Shown piece after piece: positions 21,645 to 31,153 of a DNA stretch of 64,000 nt. Below the pieces are notes generated by a model. That model made no database searches, was not told the DNA's origin, and worked only from the letters and a program-made list of their open reading frames with translations. The DNA comes from Candidatus Brocadiia bacterium. Its GTDB lineage: Bacteria; Planctomycetota; Brocadiia; CAIUPP01. Both the position numbers and the translations under genes were made by a program. Positions within the stretch are counted from its first letter, which is position 1. Each line of letters begins with the position of its first letter. Location of the stretch: NCBI GenBank assembly GCA_050015075.1, contig JBEKCB010000001.1, positions 32,001 to 96,000 of the forward strand. Direction: 5' to 3'.

Positions 21645-22466
21645 CTATTCTGAATTCCGAACGTTCGGCTCGAACGACAGCTTGCGGCAGATTTTCTCCG
21701 CGCCCTTGAGGCCGGGCCTTATGCGGAAGGCGATCTCGAGATGGCGGCGGGCGCCTTCGGTGTCGCCGATGGCCAGGTGGCATTCGGCGACTTTTTTGTG
21801 GAGGAACGCTTTCCGCTGAGGCGTCAGTTCGAGGCCCAGCGCGCGCAGGTAGTATTGCGCCGCCGCGGCCGGCCCGCTGGTCGGCGCGGCGTCGCGGCAG
21901 CAGACGTGCAGGATCCGGTCGCGCAGCTCGTGCGCGAAGTACGAGAACCGGGTCCGCGCCGCCTCGGAATGGTAGAGATCCTCGTACAGCGCCAGCGCGC
22001 GCTCGAAATCGGAGCGCCGCTGGTACTCCTCGGCGAGGAGGAACTTGCAGTCCACCCAGTCGCGCAGCTCCAGGTGATGGCTCAGGTCGTAGCCGCTGTT
22101 GGCGCGGACGAGGCGCTCGTACAGCTCCATCGCCTGCGCGACGTTGCCGCCGAGCAGGTCGTAGAGGACGCGCTCGGCCTGCGCGCGGGGATGCTCGCCT
22201 TCGGGGCGCTGCTTGGGGCGGATGGAGGACTTGCGGCGCTCGCGCTCATGGAGGACGGCGTGACGGCGGTCGTACGCCTCGCGGAGGCCGGCGTGCGAGA
22301 GCACGCGGTGCGCCTCGATCAGGGACTTGATCTGCGCGGTGGCCCATTGCGTGCGGCCGGCGTTGCGGTCCGGGTGATACTTCTTCGCCAGCGCCCGGAA
22401 CGCCCGCTTGATCTCCTGCCGGGAAGCGTTCGACGGCACGCCAAGGGTTTTGTAGTGGTCGAGCAT
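21645..22466 (-). CDS. J-domain (DnaJ-like) protein with TPR-like C-terminus
   Basis: DHYKTLGV...EIKRAFRALAKKYHPD; helical repeats in the C-terminal half. Confidence 0.88.
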   Translation of the reverse strand: MLDHYKTLGVPSNASRQEIKRAFRALAKKYHPDRNAGRTQWATAQIKSLIEAHRVLSHAGLREAYDRRHAVLHERERRKSSIRPKQRPEGEHPRAQAERVLYDLLGGNVAQAMELYERLVRANSGYDLSHHLELRDWVDCKFLLAEEYQRRSDFERALALYEDLYHSEAARTRFSYFAHELRDRILHVCCRDAAPTSGPAAAAQYYLRALGLELTPQRKAFLHKKVAECHLAIGDTEGARRHLEIAFRIRPGLKGAEKICRKLSFEPNVRNSE

Positions 22467-22618: not shown

Positions 22619-23245
22619 CTACTTCGCCGCAGGCGCCGCGGCCGGCGGTTGCGCGGCGGGCGGCTCGGCGGCGGGTTTCCGCTCGCCGGCGATGCCGCCG
22701 GAGAAGACGAAGGCCATGACGTCGGGCGTCGGCTTATCCACCGGCCGCACGCATTCCTTCGGGACGACGACCAGGTTGCCGCCGAAGTTGAATGCCGCCG
22801 GGATGTAAACGGCCACCTGGTCCTTCAGGCCCCAGCTCTCCATCGTCGCGCAGGTGACGAAGCCGACGAACTTGAGGTCGCTCTGCGGGATGGCGCTGAC
22901 GAGCACCGGCCGGTTGAACCGCTTCTTCTTGCCCACGAATGAGCCGAGCAGGTCTTTAAGCGACGAGTGGAACAGCTTGATCAGCGGGAACCGGTCGAAT
23001 TGCTGGTCGGCCAACTGCATCAGCGGGTGCGTGAGCAAGTTGGACGAGAGGAACCCGATGATCGTGAGCAGCGGTACGCCCACAATGAAAGCGATGACGA
23101 ACCCCACGCCGATCGTTTGCAGGTGGAACAGGCTCCGGACCGGCTCGTCAATCATGTTGAAGAGCCAGTAGAGGACCAGCATCGTGATCCACGCCGGCGC
23201 CGCAAACAGCAGTCCCTGAAAGAAATAGCGCGCTAACCGTCTCAT
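22619..23245 (-). CDS. DUF502-family membrane protein
   Basis: FFQGLLFAAP, PLIKLFHSSLKDL, FNRPVLV, AVYIP..FNFGGN, FVFSGG. Confidence 0.88.
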   Translation of the reverse strand: MRRLARYFFQGLLFAAPAWITMLVLYWLFNMIDEPVRSLFHLQTIGVGFVIAFIVGVPLLTIIGFLSSNLLTHPLMQLADQQFDRFPLIKLFHSSLKDLLGSFVGKKKRFNRPVLVSAIPQSDLKFVGFVTCATMESWGLKDQVAVYIPAAFNFGGNLVVVPKECVRPVDKPTPDVMAFVFSGGIAGERKPAAEPPAAQPPAAAPAAK

Positions 23246-23772: not shown

Positions 23773-23835
23773 AAGCGGCCGCCTGCGATGACGGCTTTGG
23801 GCAGCCTTCCGGAACGCCGCCTTCAAGCGCCGGGC

Positions 23836-23863
23836 TTGCAAAACTTCGTCGCAAGGTTACAAT
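23836..23863 (+). promoter_or_regulatory. Candidate promoter for the DUF350-like/Hint-Tim44 operon
   Basis: TTGCAA-N16-TACAAT. Confidence 0.5.
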
Positions 23864-23930
23864 GATGCTGCGCTCCGAAGGCCGGCGCGGACAGCGAGAC
23901 GCGCACCTTCGAGTTCAAGGAGGGGAAATC

Positions 23931-24203
23931 ATGGGCGGGCACGTGCAATACATCGGCTGGACGGTGGTGATCGCGCTGGTGGGCGGCGTGGTGGGCATTG
24001 CGCTGGTGCTGGTTTCCTCGGCGTTTCTGCCGTGGTTCATCGGCCGCATGACGCCGGCGATGGACGAGGAGAAGGAGATCGCGCGCGGCAACGTCGCGGC
24101 GGCGGAGTACTTCGGCCGGGTGGTCGCCGCGAGCATTCTGGGCATGAGCGTGGTGGTGGCGGCGGCGATCCTCGGCGCCATCATCGCGGTGCTTTCCTCG
24201 TAA
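23931..24203 (+). CDS. DUF350-like small membrane protein
   Basis: AAGGAGG RBS; two TM helices separated by MTPAMDEEKEIARGNVAAA, the TP.ld..kEI..GN.A.A pattern of DUF350. Confidence 0.78.
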   Translation: MGGHVQYIGWTVVIALVGGVVGIALVLVSSAFLPWFIGRMTPAMDEEKEIARGNVAAAEYFGRVVAASILGMSVVVAAAILGAIIAVLSS

Positions 24204-24222
24204 CCGCCGAGGAGGCAAGCCG

Positions 24223-26856
24223 ATGACGGACTCCGGAACCGGAAAGAAGTTCGGGCGCGGCGTCATCGCGCTGATGCTGGCGCTCCTGGCGGCCGGCGCC
24301 GCGTTCGCGCGCGGCGGCGGCGGCTGCCTCGAAGAGGGCACGGCGGTCCTGACGCCGTCCGGCCCGGTCGCCGTCGAGCGCCTGGCGCCGGGCGACGAGG
24401 TCCTTTCCGTCTGCGGCGGCCGGTTGATCCGGGCGACGGTCGCGGCGCGCACGCAGGTTCAGCCGGAAGAATACATTGTCCTTCGCGTAGCCGGGCGAGT
24501 GCTGCGCGTGACGGCCGAGCATCCGCTGGCGGTTGCGCCCGGCACGTTCCGCGAGGCGTCTTATCTGCGCGCCGGCGACGCGCTGCTCCTGCGCGAGGGC
24601 GACTCCAGCCGCCGGACGCCGATCGAGGCGGTCGCGCGCGTCGAAGCCGGGCGGCCTGCCTACAATCTCCTGGTCACTCCCGGCGGCACTTATCTGGCCG
24701 ACGGCCTGATCGTCCATAACAAGGGCTGCTTCCTGCCGGATACGCCGATCCTCCGCGCCGACGGGAGCGAGACCGCCATCGCGGACGTGCGGCCGGGCGA
24801 GAAACTGCTGGCGTTCACTCCCGCGGGCGAGATCGTGACCGCCACGGTCGCCGCCGTGCTGGCGATCGAGGTGGACGAATATGCCGTAGTCACTACGGAC
24901 CGCGTCACGGTGCACGTCACGGTCGAACATCCGTTCTACGTCGGCGACGGGACGTTCAAGACGCTCGAGGCGCTGAAGGTCGGCGACTCGATTTTCGCCT
25001 GGGACGGCCTGGGCCTGAGCGCGCAGCCGATTCGCAGCATCGAGCGCGTCCAGAGTCGCACGCGCGTTTACAACCTTCAGACCGACGCTCCGCACACGTA
25101 CTTCGCCTCCGGCATCGCCGTGCACAACAAGGGCGGCGGTGGCGGCTGTTTTCCTGCGGGCACGCAGATCAGCACGCCGGGCGGCAGCGCGGCGATCGAG
25201 ACGCTTCGGCCGGGCGATATCGTCCTCTCCGTGGGGCCGGATCGGCGGACGGCGGATTCGCAGGTCGAGGCGGTCCAGACCGCCTCCACGCCGATCACGG
25301 TCGTCTCCACGACGGCGGGCGAGTTGAAGACCACCGCCGAACATCCGCTGATGACGGCCGACGGCTCTTTCCGGCCGGCCGGCGAGTTGCAGCCCGGCGA
25401 CCGGATCCGCGTTTTCCGCGCCGGGCGCGTCGAGTCCGCCTCGGTCATCGAATGCCGCTCGACCGGCGAGGCGTGCCCGGTGTTCAACCTGCGCGTCGGC
25501 GACCCGCACACGTTCATCGCCGACGGATTCGTGGTCCACAACAAAGGCGGCGGCGGTGGAGGCTTCGGCGGAGGCGGCGGGTTCCACGGCGGCGGGGACC
25601 TGGACGCGACGGGCGCCCTGTTCCTCTTCGGCTTTATCGCCCTCTTCATTTTGGTGTCTGTCGTAAGCCAGAAACTGAAGGCGCGCGACGAGAACCTGGA
25701 CTTTTCGTACAGCCCTTCCGCAAGTGCGAACAAGGCGGACAAGACCCGAAAGCTGCTGGAGTTCATCGCGAAGAGCGATCCCAAGTTCGCGCCGGACCTC
25801 CTGGCGGGCACGGCCCGGTCCACGTTCGTGCTGCTCCAGAAGTGCTGGCAGGCGCGCGATTATGGGCCGATGAAGCCGCTCTTGATGCCCGATCTGTACG
25901 CCGAGCACCTGGGGCAGATTCAGGGCATGATCCGCGACCACGAGATCAACGTCATCGAGGGACTGCTCGTCGACGGGGTGGACCTGGTGAACGTGCGCTA
26001 CCCGAACGACCCCAACGGGCGCGAGTTCACTGCGCTCATCAGCGCCACCGCGCAGGACTACTACATTGACGACCGGACGCACAGCTTCGTGCGCGGCGAC
26101 GAGGAGGCGGAGCCGTTCCAGGAGTTCTGGACGTTCCACCTCGTGGACGGGCATTGGCTGCTGCGCGAGATCGAGCAGACGAAGGAGTCCGACGCGCTCA
26201 AGACGGACAATTTCTTCGAGCCGTTCACCGATCACGGTGTCAACCAGGTCTATGCGGAAACGGCCGGCCGCGAAGGGCCGGTCGGGCCGTCGGTCGAGGC
26301 CGGCGAGGAATTGAAGGTCACGCGCGTCGAGCGGCTGCTGAACTATCTCGTCGAGAACGACAAGCTCTGGGACCGGCAGGCGATGTCGGAGCGGGCGCGC
26401 AAGGTCTTCCTCGAGGTCTGTCTCGCGCGCGAGGAAGGCGATCCGGAGCACGTCCCGTCGGCGGACCTGTTCCCCGAGATCGCCGCGCACCTGAAGGAGG
26501 AAATCCGCAGCCGCCAGGCGGAGGGCGCTTCCATCGAGTTCCGCAATCTCTGCGTGCGCAAGGTGGACCTGGTCCTGGTCCGCAATTACAGCGACAAGAC
26601 GCAGGACGAATTCACCACGCGGATCAGCGCGCACGCGCAACAAGTCGTGCGCCGCAGCGGCCAGGTCGTGAGCGAGCAGCCGTACGTCACGCCGTTCGAG
26701 CAATACTGGACGTTCGGCCGGCTGGACGATCAATGGAAGCTCAAGGAAGTGGAGCCGCCCGCGAAGGGCCTCGAGATGGTCGGACAGGAGAATGTGGACG
26801 AAGGCGTCCCCGCCGCGCAGCTCGAGTGGTACTACCAGCACCCGCGCGCGACTTAA
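24223..26856 (+). CDS. Signal-peptide membrane protein with three tandem Hint (BIL/intein-like) domains and two Tim44-like domains
   Basis: GAGGAGG RBS; signal peptide ending AFA|R; three C...TxEHP...(Y/F)NL...VHN units; Gly-rich stretch; TM helix; two repeats ending PF(Q)E(F/Q)(Y)WTF...W.L.E(I/V)E. Confidence 0.9.
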   Translation: MTDSGTGKKFGRGVIALMLALLAAGAAFARGGGGCLEEGTAVLTPSGPVAVERLAPGDEVLSVCGGRLIRATVAARTQVQPEEYIVLRVAGRVLRVTAEHPLAVAPGTFREASYLRAGDALLLREGDSSRRTPIEAVARVEAGRPAYNLLVTPGGTYLADGLIVHNKGCFLPDTPILRADGSETAIADVRPGEKLLAFTPAGEIVTATVAAVLAIEVDEYAVVTTDRVTVHVTVEHPFYVGDGTFKTLEALKVGDSIFAWDGLGLSAQPIRSIERVQSRTRVYNLQTDAPHTYFASGIAVHNKGGGGGCFPAGTQISTPGGSAAIETLRPGDIVLSVGPDRRTADSQVEAVQTASTPITVVSTTAGELKTTAEHPLMTADGSFRPAGELQPGDRIRVFRAGRVESASVIECRSTGEACPVFNLRVGDPHTFIADGFVVHNKGGGGGGFGGGGGFHGGGDLDATGALFLFGFIALFILVSVVSQKLKARDENLDFSYSPSASANKADKTRKLLEFIAKSDPKFAPDLLAGTARSTFVLLQKCWQARDYGPMKPLLMPDLYAEHLGQIQGMIRDHEINVIEGLLVDGVDLVNVRYPNDPNGREFTALISATAQDYYIDDRTHSFVRGDEEAEPFQEFWTFHLVDGHWLLREIEQTKESDALKTDNFFEPFTDHGVNQVYAETAGREGPVGPSVEAGEELKVTRVERLLNYLVENDKLWDRQAMSERARKVFLEVCLAREEGDPEHVPSADLFPEIAAHLKEEIRSRQAEGASIEFRNLCVRKVDLVLVRNYSDKTQDEFTTRISAHAQQVVRRSGQVVSEQPYVTPFEQYWTFGRLDDQWKLKEVEPPAKGLEMVGQENVDEGVPAAQLEWYYQHPRAT
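24325..24720 (+). other. Hint domain 1 (132 aa)
   Basis: CLEEGTAV...VTAEHPL...AYNLLV..GGTYLADGLIVHN. Confidence 0.9.
24727..25128 (+). other. Hint domain 2 (134 aa)
   Basis: CFLPDTPI...VTVEHPF...VYNLQTDAPHTYFASGIAVHN. Confidence 0.9.
25147..25542 (+). other. Hint domain 3 (132 aa)
   Basis: CFPAGTQI...TTAEHPL...VFNLRVGDPHTFIADGFVVHN. Confidence 0.9.
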
Positions 26857-26868
26857 CGGCCGTTATTG

Positions 26869-27388
26869 AACCACCAAGGCGCCAAGGGGCAAAGAGACAA
26901 CGTCTTCCACCACGGAATACACGGAGCACACCGAATGACTTTCCCAAACGGCTTCAGTGTCTTCCGTGTACTCCGTGGTTGCAATATCAGTTGGCGTTCA
27001 AGACACCAAGGCGCATAGAGATAACGGCTTCCACCACGGAATACACGGAGCACACGGAATGACTTTCCTAAACAGCTTCAGTGTCTTCCGTGTACTCCGT
27101 GGTTGCAATATCAGTTGGCGTTCAAGACACCAAGGCGCATAGAGATAACGGCTTCCACCACGGAATACACGGAGCACACGGAATGACTTTCCTAAACAGC
27201 TTCAGTGTCTTCCGTGTATTCCGTGGTTGCAATATCAGTTGGCGTTCAAGACACCAAGGCGCATAGAGATAACGGCTTCCACCACGGAATACGCGGAGCA
27301 CACGGAATGACTTTCCTAAACAGCTTCAGTGTCTTCCGTGTATTCCGTGGTTGCAATATCAGTTGGCGCTCTTGGCGTCTTGCAGGTG
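26869..27388 (+). repeat. Tandem array of four ~124-bp units of the nested-palindrome element
   Basis: Near-identical units with a 124-bp period (the same short ORF recurs at 26957, 27081, 27205 and 27329). Confidence 0.95.
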
Positions 27389-27418
27389 AATAAAAAACCA
27401 AATTTCGAAAGAGGTCCC

Positions 27419-28426
27419 ATGCCGATGACATCCCGCGAAATCATCAAGCGCCATCTTGAATTCGCCGGCCCCGACCGGATCGGCCTCAACTTCACCGACG
27501 GCCGGGCCGACGATTTCTGCGAGGTCTGGCTCGGTCCGTCTCCGGTCTGGCGCGAGCGCCGATGGACGGAGGGCCGGCAGGAGTTCTACACCGATGAGTG
27601 GGGCAACACCTGGTTCCGCATGGCGGGCATGGGCCGCGGCGGCGAAATTTATCAGCCCGCGCTGACGGAGTGGGACCAACTGAAGGACTATCGCCTGCCG
27701 GACATGGCCGCGCCGGAACGGTACTCCACGGCGCGCCGGAAATTCGCGGCCGAGAAGGAGCGCTATCGGCTCGGCGGGCTGCCCGGGTTCCCGTTCGCGA
27801 TCTGCCGCTACCTGCGGAAGATGGAGAACTATTTCAAGGACCTTCTGCTGGAGCGCGAGCGCGTGGACGAGCTGCACGACCGCGTGGCGGCGCTGCTCGA
27901 GAACGTGATCGCGCAATACGCGCAGGCCGGGGCGGACGGCGTTATCTTCTGCGAGGACTGGGGCACACAGGAGCGGCTGCTGGTCAGCCCTGCGATGTGG
28001 CGCGAGATCTTCAAGCCGCTGTTCCGGCGCCTGTGCGCCGCCGCCCACGCGCGCGGCCTGCACGTGCTCATGCACTCGTGCGGTAACGTGCGCGACATCC
28101 TCGGCGACCTGGCCGAGGCCGGCGTGAACTGCATGCAGTTCGACCAGCCGGCGCTCTATGGGCTCGAACCGCTCGCGGCGCGGCTCCAGGCCGTGAAGCT
28201 CTGCCTCTTCTCGCCGGTGGACATCCAGCAGGTGCTGCCGAGCGGCGACCGGGCGCGGATCGTCGCCGAGGCGCGGCGCATGGCGGAGCTTTTCAACGGC
28301 CGGCGCGGCGGGTTCATCGCCAGGAATTACGCCGACCTCAAGGGCATCGGCGTCCAGCCGGAATGGGACGGCTGGGCGTACGAGACGTTCCTCGAATGCG
28401 CGGGCGGGAAACTCGCGAAGGCTTGA
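27419..28426 (+). CDS. Uroporphyrinogen decarboxylase (URO-D/MtaA-like) superfamily protein
   Basis: TDEWG, FCEDWGTQERLLVSP..WREIFKP, MHSCG, PVDIQ. Confidence 0.87.
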   Translation: MPMTSREIIKRHLEFAGPDRIGLNFTDGRADDFCEVWLGPSPVWRERRWTEGRQEFYTDEWGNTWFRMAGMGRGGEIYQPALTEWDQLKDYRLPDMAAPERYSTARRKFAAEKERYRLGGLPGFPFAICRYLRKMENYFKDLLLERERVDELHDRVAALLENVIAQYAQAGADGVIFCEDWGTQERLLVSPAMWREIFKPLFRRLCAAAHARGLHVLMHSCGNVRDILGDLAEAGVNCMQFDQPALYGLEPLAARLQAVKLCLFSPVDIQQVLPSGDRARIVAEARRMAELFNGRRGGFIARNYADLKGIGVQPEWDGWAYETFLECAGGKLAKA

Positions 28427-28442: not shown

Positions 28443-29348
28443 TCACGCTTTCGGGATAAGGATCGGCGCGAGGCACGCGGGACAACGGCCCTTTCTGCCG
28501 GCGAATTCGCGTTTTGCCTTGAGGAGCTTGCCGCAGGTGCAGAGGATCGGGATCGTGTCCTCCCGCGGGATCGGCATGGGATTGCCCGGTGGCGCCGGAT
28601 AGCGGACCGCCGTGCTGTCCGCGGTCGCGGCCTCCAGAGCGCTCCGCGCCACGCGGTCGCGCCACGCCGTCCTCAGCCCGAAGATATCCAGCAGCGTCCG
28701 CTCGGTGTCGTCCATCGAAACCCGCCGCAGTTGCATCAGCACGATCGCCAGGACAAACCCGGCCGCGAATCCGCCGATGTGCGCCCAGTACGCCACGCCG
28801 CCCAGTCCCAGCGCGGCGCCGAGAATGTCGAAGGCCAGCCAGAGCAGCATGATCCAGTAGCTGCTCACCTCGAACCATCCGTACCGGATGTAGAAGAAAA
28901 GCCAGGCGAAGTAAAAGCAGCTGATCTCGTTGGTCGGGAACCACACCAGGCACATGGCCATGACGCCGCTGATGGCGCCGCTCGCGCCGATGGCCGGATG
29001 GTCGCTGAAGAGCACGTGCGCCATGCCCGCCAGGATGCCCAGCCCGACGAAGAGGAACGGGTATGCGGCGTTCCCCACCTTCTCGCAGACGGCGTTGCCG
29101 AAGACCCACAGGAAAACCATGTTGCCGGCGAGGTGGAAGATGCCGCCGTGGAGAAAGATGTGGCCGACCAGGCCGAGGGGATTCCATCCGTTCAGCACGA
29201 ACGACCCGATGGCCGGAGTTCCCGCGAGGCCGCCCGCGCCGAACTGCTCGAGGAGGTAACAGACGACCAGCAGCGCGAGGATGACATAGTTGGCGATAGG
29301 CCGCCGGTAAAGCGGAACGTCCACGTGGTAGGGCACGAGCAGGAACAT
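28443..29348 (-). CDS. Rhomboid-family intramembrane serine protease with C-terminal zinc ribbon
   Basis: FLHGGIFHLAGNM, IGASGA, AYWAHIGG; tail CTCGK...CPAC. Confidence 0.92.
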   Translation of the reverse strand: MFLLVPYHVDVPLYRRPIANYVILALLVVCYLLEQFGAGGLAGTPAIGSFVLNGWNPLGLVGHIFLHGGIFHLAGNMVFLWVFGNAVCEKVGNAAYPFLFVGLGILAGMAHVLFSDHPAIGASGAISGVMAMCLVWFPTNEISCFYFAWLFFYIRYGWFEVSSYWIMLLWLAFDILGAALGLGGVAYWAHIGGFAAGFVLAIVLMQLRRVSMDDTERTLLDIFGLRTAWRDRVARSALEAATADSTAVRYPAPPGNPMPIPREDTIPILCTCGKLLKAKREFAGRKGRCPACLAPILIPKA

Positions 29349-29504: not shown

Positions 29505-30008
29505 ATGGCGGTGGAAAGTCTCTGGGCGCCGTGGCGGATGGAGTTCATTCGCGGGCTCGGCGGCAAGCCCGACGGCTGTTTCATCTGCGACGCCGCCGCG
29601 GCCAGCGAGGACCGGCAGAACCTGGTCGTCCGCCGCGGCCGCACCGCGTTCTGCATGCTCAACCGCTATCCTTACAACAACGGGCACCTGCTCATCTCGC
29701 CCTTCCGGCACGAGGGCAAGATTGAGTCGCTCTCCCGCGAAGAACTCGCCGAGATTCTCTCGATGACCATCGAGTCGAAGAAGCTGCTCGACCGCCTGAT
29801 GTACCCGAACGGATACAACATCGGCGTCAACCTCGGCCGCGCGGCGGGCGCCGGGCTGGAGGAGCACTTTCACCTGCACGTCGTCCCGCGCTGGTCGGGC
29901 GACACGAACTTCGTGACCACCGTCGGCTCGGTCAAGGTCATCCCGCAGGCGCTCGACGAACTCTGGGCGATGATGGACGCGGAGTGGAAGAAGGAATCGC
30001 CGTGCTGA
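29505..30008 (+). CDS. HIT-family hydrolase (Ap4A hydrolase/phosphorylase-like)
   Basis: LWAPWRM, CFIC, NRYPYNNGHL, HFHLHVVPRW. Confidence 0.92.
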   Translation: MAVESLWAPWRMEFIRGLGGKPDGCFICDAAAASEDRQNLVVRRGRTAFCMLNRYPYNNGHLLISPFRHEGKIESLSREELAEILSMTIESKKLLDRLMYPNGYNIGVNLGRAAGAGLEEHFHLHVVPRWSGDTNFVTTVGSVKVIPQALDELWAMMDAEWKKESPC

Positions 30009-31153
30009 ACCGCGAGGAGATCGAGAGACGCGAGGAGCGCGAGCTGGCGCCTTATGCGATGCGCAGCGGGCGCTCGCGCGGGCGCGCGCACGGCGAGCCG
30101 GAGCACCCGCTCCGCCCGGCCTACCAGCGCGACCGCGAGCGCGTGATCCACTCGACCGCCTTCCGCCGCCTGCAGTACAAGACGCAGGTCTTCGTCAACC
30201 ACGAGGGAGACCACTACCGCACGCGGCTGACGCACACGATCGAGGTGGCGCAGATCGCCCGCGCGATCGCGCGCTTCCTGAACTTGAACGAGGACCTCGC
30301 CGAGGCCGTCGCGCTCGCGCACGACCTGGGGCACACGCCGTTCGGCCACTCCGGCGAGGACGCGCTCCGCGAGCTGATGAAGGGGCACGGCGGCTTCGAG
30401 CACAACCTCCACGGCCTGCGCGTGGTGGACGTCCTCGAGCGCCGCTACCCGCAGTTCCGCGGCCTGAACCTGACCTGGGAAGTGCGCGAGTCCATCGCCA
30501 AGCACGTCACGACGTACGATCACCCCGCCACGCGCGATTTCGATCCGGGCCTGCGGCCACTGCTCGAGGCGCAGGTCGTCGAGGCGGCTGACAGCATCGC
30601 CTACGTCTCGCACGACCTCGACGACGGCCTCGGCGCGGGGATCCTCGACGCGAGCGTCTTCGAGAAAGTCGAGCTGCTCACCGTGGTCGCGCGCGAGGTG
30701 AGCCCGCTGCATCCCGACCTCTCCGCGCGCGATCACCGCAACGAGGCCGTCCGCACGCTCATCAACCTGCTCGTCACCGACCTATGCCGCACGACGGCGG
30801 AACGGCTGCAGGAGATGGACATCGCCTCCGTCGAGGCCGTCCGCCGCGCGCCGGGCAACCTGGTGGCGCACTCGCCGGACATGCACCGGCTCAAGGACGA
30901 CCTGCAGAAGCACCTGCACCAGCAGGTGTACCTGCACTACCGCGTTGCGCGGATGGCGAACAAGGCGCGGCGGCTGGTGAAGGAGATTTTCGAGGAGTAC
31001 ATCCTGCACCCGAGGCAGCTCCCGCCCGACTATCAGGAGTGGACTGAGCAGGCCGGGCTGCACCAGGGCGTGTGCGACTACGTGGCCGGGATGACCGACC
31101 GCTACGCCCAGGAGGAATATGCCAAGCTCTTCTCGCCGACCGAGCGCACCTGA
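30002..31153 (+). CDS. dgt: Deoxyguanosinetriphosphate triphosphohydrolase
   Basis: RDRERVIHSTAFRRLQYKTQVF, RTRLTH, AHDLGHTPFGHSGE, DYVAGMTD. Confidence 0.95.
   Translation: MLNREEIERREERELAPYAMRSGRSRGRAHGEPEHPLRPAYQRDRERVIHSTAFRRLQYKTQVFVNHEGDHYRTRLTHTIEVAQIARAIARFLNLNEDLAEAVALAHDLGHTPFGHSGEDALRELMKGHGGFEHNLHGLRVVDVLERRYPQFRGLNLTWEVRESIAKHVTTYDHPATRDFDPGLRPLLEAQVVEAADSIAYVSHDLDDGLGAGILDASVFEKVELLTVVAREVSPLHPDLSARDHRNEAVRTLINLLVTDLCRTTAERLQEMDIASVEAVRRAPGNLVAHSPDMHRLKDDLQKHLHQQVYLHYRVARMANKARRLVKEIFEEYILHPRQLPPDYQEWTEQAGLHQGVCDYVAGMTDRYAQEEYAKLFSPTERT

Follow-up and report, generated by a model that had tools for sequence, protein, structure and literature searches.

The 64,000-nucleotide (nt) stretch of DNA from a Candidatus Brocadiia bacterium analysed here (contig JBEKCB010000001.1; the window) encodes, at 24223..26856(+), an 877-amino acid (aa) protein that combines three tandem Hint domains with two Tim44-like domains. 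From the N-terminus we found a signal peptide, the segment RGGGG, a first Hint (Hint A), KG, a second (Hint B), KGGGGG, a third (Hint C), a Gly-rich stretch, one transmembrane helix and the two Tim44-like domains. An original prediction made from the sequence had proposed this layout, and it held residue for residue, both for the open reading frame (ORF) and for the Hints at residues 35-166, 169-302 and 309-440. On the opposite strand an ORF of 886 aa (24181..26841) was set aside as a high-GC shadow, the homology being all on the + strand.

The predicted Sec-type signal peptide (24223..24309(+), residues 1-29) contains K8, K9 and R12 and a hydrophobic segment at residues 10-33, and would be cleaved between AFA and R30. 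It was recognised by eye and in a hydropathy window by its positive n-region, hydrophobic core and A-x-A motif, with neither a lipobox nor a twin Arg. A twin-arginine translocation signal was rejected since there is no twin Arg. Cys35 was rejected as a lipoprotein cysteine since the GGG ahead of it is unlike the lipobox, the consensus against which such a cysteine is judged. The five residues RGGGG (24310..24324(+), residues 30-34) form the N-extein of Hint A.

Hint A (24325..24720(+), residues 35-166, 132 aa) begins with Cys35, contains T97-x-x-H100 and ends in H165-N166. The linker Lys167-Gly168 (24721..24726(+)) supplies both the +1/+2 positions of Hint A and the -2/-1 positions of Hint B. 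Hint B (24727..25128(+), residues 169-302, 134 aa) has Cys169, T233-x-x-H236 and H301-N302, and is followed by the linker KGGGGG (25129..25146(+), residues 303-308), for which the structural model described below gives a predicted local distance difference test score (pLDDT) <50. Hint C (25147..25542(+), residues 309-440, 132 aa) has Cys309, TAEH and H439-N440. All three domains thus keep the Cys1, block-B TxxH and terminal His-Asn claimed for them and, at 132-134 aa and all-beta in the model, carry no intein endonuclease insert. In each of them the +1 residue is Lys, with no Cys, Ser or Thr at that position.

Behind Hint C lie Lys441 and the Gly-rich stretch KGGGGGGFGGGGGFHGGG (25543..25596(+), residues 441-458), which is predicted to be exoplasmic and disordered (pLDDT <50 at residues 441-461); a stretch resembling KGGGGGGFGGGGGFHGGG was seen in every homologue printed. 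The transmembrane helix follows (25597..25683(+), residues ~459-487; Kyte-Doolittle segment 458-487, model helix 462-490), with QKLKAR after it on the predicted cytoplasmic side, and the part of the protein after this helix is 390 aa long. It holds Tim44-like domain 1 (25756..26178(+), residues 512-652) and Tim44-like domain 2 (26359..26751(+), residues 713-843). From the positive n-region, the A-x-A motif, acidic residues ahead of the second hydrophobic segment and QKLKAR behind it, we infer that the Sec signal is cleaved off, that the Hints and the Gly-rich region are exoplasmic, and that a single transmembrane helix leads to Tim44 domains in the cytoplasm. The suggestion that the Hints work outside the cytoplasm fits this topology.

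Contigs from four independent public runs, belonging to four studies, were aligned to the array region. Three contigs span Hint junctions with 0 differences, namely X7 record 20 (24294-26217), X9 record 26 (24000-25337) and X5 record 10 (24207-25119). Since independent contigs bridge the junctions without differences, the Hint array is not an assembly artefact. Another contig, X9 record 28 (25441-26348), differs from the window at 36 places and has CGG inserted behind 25586, within the Gly-rich stretch; it looks like a co-occurring strain variant with another Gly-run length. The one joint reported, 24322 to 26391 in X5, was considered as a unit-deletion variant and discounted, its shorter side being 21 letters.

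The identity of the domains was examined with profiles and structural models. Against Pfam, PT-HINT (PF07591) matched the protein at 97.9 bits (cut-off 27.7) in 3 stretches, the best of them at residues 179-303 in Hint B, and Hint, Hint_2, Vint and Intein_splicing were also over their cut-offs. In NCBIfam, the N- and C-terminal splicing regions of inteins were matched. The nearest solved sequence to Hint B was 2lwy, a "bacterial intein-like domain" (E 7e-11), which a figure legend in PMC7664689 gives as the Clostridium thermocellum bacterial intein-like (BIL) domain. Together with the missing +1 Cys/Ser/Thr, this match agrees with the earlier assignment of the Hints as A-type BIL-like. An AlphaFold2 model of the whole protein (mean pLDDT 81.7) shows three all-beta domains and two alpha+beta domains; Hint A is all-beta, with block pLDDT mostly 74-92. 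When this model was compared with the PDB using Foldseek, 111 matches were obtained at E<=0.001, and the rows shown were all BIL, intein or mini-intein, or Hedgehog Hint domains. The top match was BIL2 of Tetrahymena BUBL1 (6tmm/6y75; E 6e-10, template modelling (TM) score 0.79-0.81 on target).

The C-terminal part had been described as two Tim44-like domains, and both kinds of search agree with this. Tim44 (PF04280) matched the whole protein at 81.1 bits (cut-off 29.6) in 2 stretches, and each half taken separately exceeded the same cut-off, domain 1 at 48.2 bits and domain 2 at 40.3 bits. The NCBIfam family Tim44_TimA_adap (NF033779), with its best stretch at residues 698-841, scored 53.2 bits, below its 80-bit cut-off. 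Searched by sequence against the PDB, the Tim44 half gave 0 matches at E<=1, and in the whole-model Foldseek search the rows shown were Hint matches throughout, none informative on this half. A separate model of residues 490-877 (pLDDT 89.4, predicted template modelling score 0.84) matched first 2cw9, the human Tim44 C-terminal domain (E 1.6e-6), then mitoribosomal chains at the mL45 position and yeast Tim44 (3qk9, 2fxt), and also 9j9b_C. Domain 2 has the same helix-then-sheet layout in the model as domain 1.

Proteins with this Tim44 half are widespread. Using residues 441-877 as query, with 8000 candidates scored, 915 proteins matched at E<=0.001. PF07591 and PF04280 occurred together in 119/120 homologues listed, the exception (P0002) being a fragment that starts inside a Hint. 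When cluster representatives were searched exhaustively and without a profile, 224 of them matched at E<=1e-30. Of 348 candidate stretches in species-representative genomes, we could confirm 283 as loci, and the counts of phyla, arrays and upstream genes given below refer to the best 80 of these 283. The profile search and collection of homologues that had been called for placed PT-HINT and Tim44 over their cut-offs and yielded homologues with zero to five Hints.

The catalytic residues are kept across the family, as had been expected. Among 373 distinct full-length Hints from 236 family proteins, we found Cys1 in 372, the block-B Thr in 371, the block-B His in 363, and both the penultimate His and the terminal Asn in all 373. 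The flanks are nearly as strict: 258 full-length Hints from the first 121 proteins all have Gly(-1), Cys1 and His-Asn, and 257 of them carry Lys at +1, the remaining one Met. Of 203 Hints from 150 cluster representatives, some of them with non-Tim44 hosts, all ended in His-Asn, 200 began with Cys1, 196 had Lys at +1 and 188 had Gly at -1. Elsewhere these flanks are looser. Among 14 PT-HINT domains in other proteins of the sampled Planctomycetota, +1 was K in 4, N in 4, G in 2 and I, V, E or A in 1 each, and Gly(-1) was found in 2/9 such domains.

The segments around the Hints are similarly regular. In N-terminally complete homologues, A-x-[AG] and then RGGGG always stand ahead of the first Hint, and in 20 homologues R30, G32 and G33 were invariant while G31 and G34 were at least 90% conserved. 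Linkers between Hints consist of K and 1-7 Gly, and KG recurs between the first two Hints in homologues.

Directly upstream of the Hint-Tim44 gene lies a gene for a DUF350-like small membrane protein (23931..24203(+), 90 aa, two transmembrane segments), which stops 19 nt short of the Hint-Tim44 start codon. Although its longest ORF begins at 23862, we prefer 23931 as the start: the ATG there has a GGAGG 7 nt ahead of it, and most homologues have a length of 89 aa. The window copy scored 23.3 bits against Pfam DUF350 (PF03994; cut-off 26), with a match covering about half of the 133-position profile, and aligned homologues of the small upstream protein matched DUF350 in 11/11 cases at E<=0.01 (best 6.1e-8). 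In 73/80 loci a DUF350-like gene immediately precedes the Hint-Tim44 gene in the same orientation. Of the seven loci without it, six have <150 nt of upstream sequence, which leaves one real exception (L038). A loop of the DUF350 homologues, TPxxDEEKEIARGNxAVAEYFGR, is nearly invariant.

We propose that these two genes form a membrane cassette, in which a DUF350-like protein with two transmembrane segments would accompany a single-pass double-Tim44 protein with an exported, Hint-bearing tail. In our reading the three A-type BIL-like Hints probably excise themselves outside the cytoplasm. The sequence suggests Sec export and cleavage after AFA as the first step. Each Hint would then fold on the exoplasmic face and turn the Gly(-1)-Cys1 bond into a thioester by an N-S acyl shift, as Cys1 and T-x-x-H would predict. 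Next, the terminal Asn would cyclise and cut the bond between His-Asn and Lys, for which the invariant His-Asn argues. Last, an amine of Lys(+1), either the alpha-amine freed in the preceding step or the epsilon-amine, would attack the Gly thioester and rejoin the flanks. In the alpha-amine route, the amine released by Asn cyclisation would attack the thioester. The expected products are three free Hints of ~14 kDa and a mature tail RGGGG-KG-KGGGGG-KGGGGGGFGG..., like the tails of Hint-free relatives.

Rejoining of the Gly/Lys flanks is slightly favoured over plain hydrolysis on three grounds taken from the sequences. The flanking Gly(-1) and Lys(+1), loose in other PT-HINT domains, hardly vary in this family, and would act as a thioester donor without steric hindrance and as the accepting amine. 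RGGGG is strictly kept, and Hint-free relatives also start with RGG, which suggests that RGGGG is worth retaining and so favours ligation. Finally, the spliced product would resemble the Hint-free tails. Published work offers precedents for the proposed chemistry: A-type BILs keep His-Asn, have no +1 nucleophile and cleave at their ends, and some of them splice by an alternative route (PMC5874633, PMC7765530, PMC7664689), while Tetrahymena BIL2 is reported to form a Lys-epsilon isopeptide (PMC8616854).

Alternatively, both ends of each Hint could be cut and the flanks not rejoined, which would free RGGGG, KG and KGGGGG and leave a mature protein starting at Lys441. We consider this possible though rather unlikely. 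It needs the same catalytic residues as excision with ligation, and PMC3482391 lists PT-HINT domains of secreted toxins as releasing proteases. Moreover, BIL products are called predominantly cleaved (PMC7664689, PMC7765530). Cleavage alone leaves unexplained the strict keeping of an RGGGG that would be discarded and the RGG that follows the signal-peptide Ala in Hint-free relatives. It also leaves unexplained the joint near-invariance of Gly(-1) and Lys(+1), which is looser in other PT-HINT domains.

Several points weigh against the proposed excision or its ligation step. One passage of PMC7765530 states that A-type BILs "cannot ligate the flanking sequences", and because the reviews describe cleavage, ligation is not the default expectation. 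Lys is also the joint-commonest +1 residue (4/14) when PT-HINT domains occur singly in other proteins, for which no ligation is expected, and Lys(+1) may instead serve Asn cyclisation or folding. A free Cys1 thiol on the exoplasmic side may be oxidised; we speculate that a low-oxygen habitat would suit such a thiol. The cleavage of the signal peptide was judged by eye alone. With respect to the choice of amine, RecA and DnaB mini-inteins are a close second to BIL2 in the Foldseek search (E 8e-10 vs 6e-10), and because BIL2 is barely ahead of them the fold match does not single out an isopeptide mechanism. Lastly, Hint-free hosts described below (P0275, P0240, P0348 and P0166) indicate that the Hints are not indispensable to the Tim44 part.

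By analogy with BIL2, each Hint could pass its Gly-thioester to the epsilon-amine of Lys and thus carry out an ATP-independent isopeptide ligation on the exoplasmic side. We regard this version as quite unlikely. If true, the product would be a Gly/Lys tail joined through epsilon-amines and bearing several free alpha-amines; alternatively, pieces ending in Gly would become attached to other envelope proteins. The domains would then be a Lys-nucleophile class of Hint in bacteria, and a tandem array would act as a stepwise ligation line.

The Hints of the window share 32-39% identity in pairwise comparison; judged by their sequences, they are three long-separated paralogous types, and the earlier statement that they are no fresh duplication stands. 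The tree of Hint domains was poorly resolved, having few columns, with 14/104 branches well supported. Because of this weak support we typed Hints by their best match to the three Hints of the window in 44 complete representatives, some types remaining uncertain. The commonest arrays were A-B-C (9), B alone (7) and A-B (5); others included A-B-A-B (2), A-B-C-C and A-B-C-B-B. The order A-B-C is fixed across phyla. In the best 80 loci, whose ranking favours matches to a three-Hint query, 68 arrays were complete, with three Hints in 56, four in 8 and two in 4. Per listed protein, Hint matches numbered 2 in 63, 3 in 39, 4 in 13, 1 in 4 and 5 in 2, where some 4s and 5s are split matches on a shorter first Hint and the 1s are fragments. 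The PT-HINT family undercounts these Hints, one genome (G019) having no PT-HINT match and four matches with a family-specific profile.

Close relatives differ by whole units. L001 encodes the window protein minus exactly Hint A and KG, giving the array B-C, and P0003 has A-B only while being 83-92% identical to the window protein in each region. GGCTGC occurs at both DNA borders of the unit missing from L001, a microhomology that would permit precise deletion of a unit. In one Planctomycetota genome (L116 in G046, and L106) the first Hint is out of frame with what follows it in the gene, and the locus is broken by a run of N. Possible causes are a frameshift, an error in sequencing, or masking.

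Tandem Hints with His-Asn-Lys-Gly(n)-Cys junctions were also seen in proteins without Tim44 domains (P0257, P0222, P0221, P0254, P0263, P0269 and P0270). P0257, of 4119 aa, has five Hints together with Laminin_B and Laminin_G_3, and one of the non-Tim44 array proteins, of 1285 aa, has eight Hint matches. The tendency to form arrays of several Hints seems to extend more widely within this Hint clade.

The rates of change were compared by region between the window and L001 as the ratio of nonsynonymous to synonymous substitution rates (dN/dS). This ratio was 0.27 for Hint B (134 codons), 0.26 for the Tim44 part (388 codons), 0.59 for Hint C (132 codons; few changes, dS 0.098) and 0.96 for the Gly and transmembrane segment (48 codons). 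Median identity to the window protein in 19 homologues was 46% for Hint A, 52% for Hint B and 41% for Hint C; in the same homologues the two Tim44 domains had medians of 55% and 48%, the signal peptide one of 21% and the transmembrane helix one of 17%. Hint B is the most conserved Hint type, and it is 73% identical to its counterpart in P0122. The Hints, above all Hint B, are thus about as slow-evolving as the folded domains of their host.

Since the Hints are retained in fixed order and under purifying selection, despite having no endonuclease and being easily and precisely lost, we read the sequences as a sign that selection keeps at least one Hint, usually of type B, and that the Hints are themselves selected, beyond mere tolerance. 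The same material can be read in another way, in which [Cys...His-Asn-Lys-Gly(n)] units are selfish or neutral passengers of Gly-rich exported regions that excise without benefit, copies that fail to excise crippling the host. Exact-unit changes in copy number between close relatives, the unit duplications in A-B-A-B, A-B-C-C and A-B-C-B-B, and His-Asn-Lys-Gly(n)-Cys arrays in unrelated proteins such as P0257 and P0222 are what one would expect of such passengers. So are the Hint-free variants of the host and the patchiness within a phylum (6/151 genomes, 0/5 in the window's class). Moreover, a self-excising insert is under selection to go on excising whatever its value. We nevertheless judge this explanation unlikely. 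There is no homing endonuclease to drive spread, and with loss through GGCTGC so easy, unselected copies should vanish; yet Hints are present in 119/120 homologues listed, and all 68 complete arrays among the best 80 loci have 2-4 of them. The order A, B, C is fixed across phyla and Hint B changes at the slow pace of the host domains, neither of which suits a passenger.

A different possibility is that the Hints do not process at all and stay as exoplasmic binding or structural modules, with the conserved residues serving another role. We know of nothing direct in its favour; what can be counted for it is that some Hint-fold domains of other families have no known processing. The full catalytic set in 363-373 of 373 domains per residue, together with the Gly-Cys and His-Asn-Lys junctions, argues against it, as does the fact that arrays tolerate losing or gaining entire units, which one would not expect of a fixed structural assembly. 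We consider it very improbable.

Hint-free relatives bear on how the arrays arose. The distant double-Tim44 proteins P0260, P0245, P0246 and P0258, with complete N-termini, have a signal peptide, an "ARGG..." start and a Gly/Ser-rich stretch without any Hint, and P0268 is a similar distant Hint-free protein whose Gly/Ser-rich tail lacks the Arg. Because Hint-free relatives have the ARGG and the Gly-rich tail, we conclude that the Hints are additions to a pre-existing exported Gly-rich tail, and that taking them out in silico gives back roughly the ancestral tail. This agrees with the earlier remark that the tail without its Hints resembles the N-terminus of ordinary Tim44 proteins, since the relatives show the same Ala, cleavage site, RGG and Gly-rich sequence. 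Closer Hint-free relatives have other membrane anchors, one transmembrane segment in P0275 and P0240 and several in P0348 and P0166.

In P0275, which is 71% identical in the Tim44 part, and in P0240 the protein begins with nine residues similar to those at the start of the DUF350 gene, as though that start had been joined to the Tim44 body through a deletion. P0272, a fragment truncated at its N-terminus, is 99% identical to the window's Tim44 part and has junction residues in common with P0275 and P0240; it could represent an allele without Hints from a near-identical strain. Scanning the metagenomes with P0260 gave two loci, its own contig end (L085) and a Hint-bearing homologue (L084), and in 3 kb upstream at L085 no DUF350-like ORF was found on the + strand, the one strand searched. 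Hits from a search for shorter homologues were not taken for Hint-free forms, because most are contig-end fragments or internal gene calls; P0305, for instance, begins within VHNKGGG.

The best 80 loci carry 13 phylum labels. Verrucomicrobiota (17), Thermodesulfobacteriota (16), Planctomycetota (12) and Lentisphaerota (6) come first, followed by Pseudomonadota and Nitrospirota (5 each), Chloroflexota and Myxococcota (2 each) and five other phyla (1 each), and 10 are unlabelled. The closest locus among those listed is L001, 87% identical and labelled Candidatus Brocadiia bacterium. The Tim44 half matched 6/151 sampled Planctomycetota genomes at E<=1e-10, and 0/5 in the class of the window. Identity to the query is ~45-59% irrespective of phylum. 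The similar identity across phyla and the patchiness within a phylum suggest lateral spread of the cassette. In the genome of the window itself, the PT-HINT matches are these three domains only.

The only label among the 80 loci that is not a metagenome-assembled genome (MAG) is that of a Legionella species strain (L041), with three Hints and the usual junctions, and a Legionella MAG (L045) also has the cassette. Many carriers in the 80 loci are named as anaerobic groups, including Syntrophales, Smithellaceae, Sedimentisphaerales and Anaerolineales. All 24 public runs listed (X1-X24) that contain the stretch 23800-26900, whole or in part, are labelled as peat or wetland metagenomes, and no RNA run was listed as containing it.

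The neighbours of the cassette in the window are a rhomboid protease (28443-29348(-)), a URO-D-like protein (27329-28426(+)), a DUF502 membrane protein (22619-23245(-)), a DnaJ-TPR protein (21645-22466(-)) and an HD/HD_assoc phosphohydrolase (29984-31153(+)). Beyond the window they adjoin the cassette only in L001, and among the best 80 loci we found no further neighbour common to the loci beyond L001.

The architecture had been put forward as uncharacterised. This fits the literature searched, in which, with most subscription journals and supplements outside coverage, we found no paper on Hints in Tim44-like proteins or on tandem Hint arrays of this kind, and no bacterial link between DUF350 and Tim44. 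It does not extend to the databases, which already name homologues automatically as "TIM44-like domain-containing protein" or "predicted lipid-binding transport protein (Tim44 family)", with Hint Pfam matches. The parts are already known; the arrangement and its regularities are undescribed in the literature searched. Beyond the original prediction go the wide spread of the architecture, the DUF350 partner gene, the fixed order of the Hint types, the whole-unit changes in copy number, the Gly(-1)/Lys(+1) flanks and the Lys-isopeptide precedent in ciliate BUBL loci. The known extracytoplasmic Hints of Hedgehog and bacterial toxins are single domains that release large cargo, whereas here there is an ordered array of up to five. 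With its fixed site in a widespread membrane protein, its tiny exteins and its Gly/Lys junctions, the family offers a natural test bed for nucleophile-free or Lys-mediated ligation, and could provide compact, extein-tolerant and secretion-compatible ligation tools. It also draws attention to a two-gene DUF350 and double-Tim44 cassette in many anaerobic sediment and peat bacteria.

Among known systems, the A-type BIL domains represented by 2lwy share with the window Hints the mini-Hint size, Cys1, block-B TxxH and His-Asn, the missing +1 Cys/Ser/Thr and exported hosts. For these domains PMC5874633 and PMC7765530 describe cleavage at the C-terminal end and, for some of them, splicing by another route. 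The same reviews place BILs in hypervariable regions of non-conserved bacterial proteins. In contrast, the window family has a fixed site after the signal peptide and RGGGG, a conserved host, ordered arrays of 1-5 Hints and exteins of only 2-7 residues.

BIL2 of Tetrahymena thermophila BUBL1, the top fold match, likewise sits in a tandem BIL setting and has an N-extein ending in Gly. According to section 2.4 of PMC8616854, it joins a Gly end to a Lys epsilon-amine without ATP. BIL2 is eukaryotic and cytosolic and has folded ubiquitin-like cargo, whereas the segments between the window Hints are only K-G(n), predicted to be exoplasmic, and their Lys nucleophile is putative.

The PT-HINT domains (PF07591) of polymorphic toxins are also exported and are listed in PMC3482391 as processing proteases. 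In the toxins the Hint precedes a C-terminal toxin and has variable flanks; here there is no toxin domain or immunity gene, and the Hints lie in the N-terminal tail of a membrane protein that looks like a housekeeping one.

Class-1 mini-inteins (Ssp/Npu DnaB and Mtu RecA) resemble the window Hints in fold (TM score 0.8-0.87 on target), in Cys1, TxxH and His-Asn, and in occupying a fixed site in a conserved host. Unlike these inteins, the window Hints have no +1 Cys/Ser/Thr, are predicted to be exported, occur in tandem and sit in a Gly run of low complexity, not at an active site.

The Hog/Hint domain of Hedgehog, exported by way of a signal peptide, makes its Gly-Cys thioester outside the cytosol, as proposed here, and is represented among the fold matches by 6tyy and 1at0. 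However, it has no terminal His-Asn cleavage, and it works with a sterol-recognition region and cholesterol, neither of which was seen in the window.

For the C-terminal half, the Tim44 C-terminal domain, mL45 and bacterial Tim44-like proteins have PF04280, the same fold and a cytoplasmic (matrix-equivalent) location after one transmembrane segment, which is also the location predicted here. The window protein differs from them in its two tandem domains, in its sub-threshold match to Tim44_TimA_adap and in its predicted exported tail that bears the Hints.

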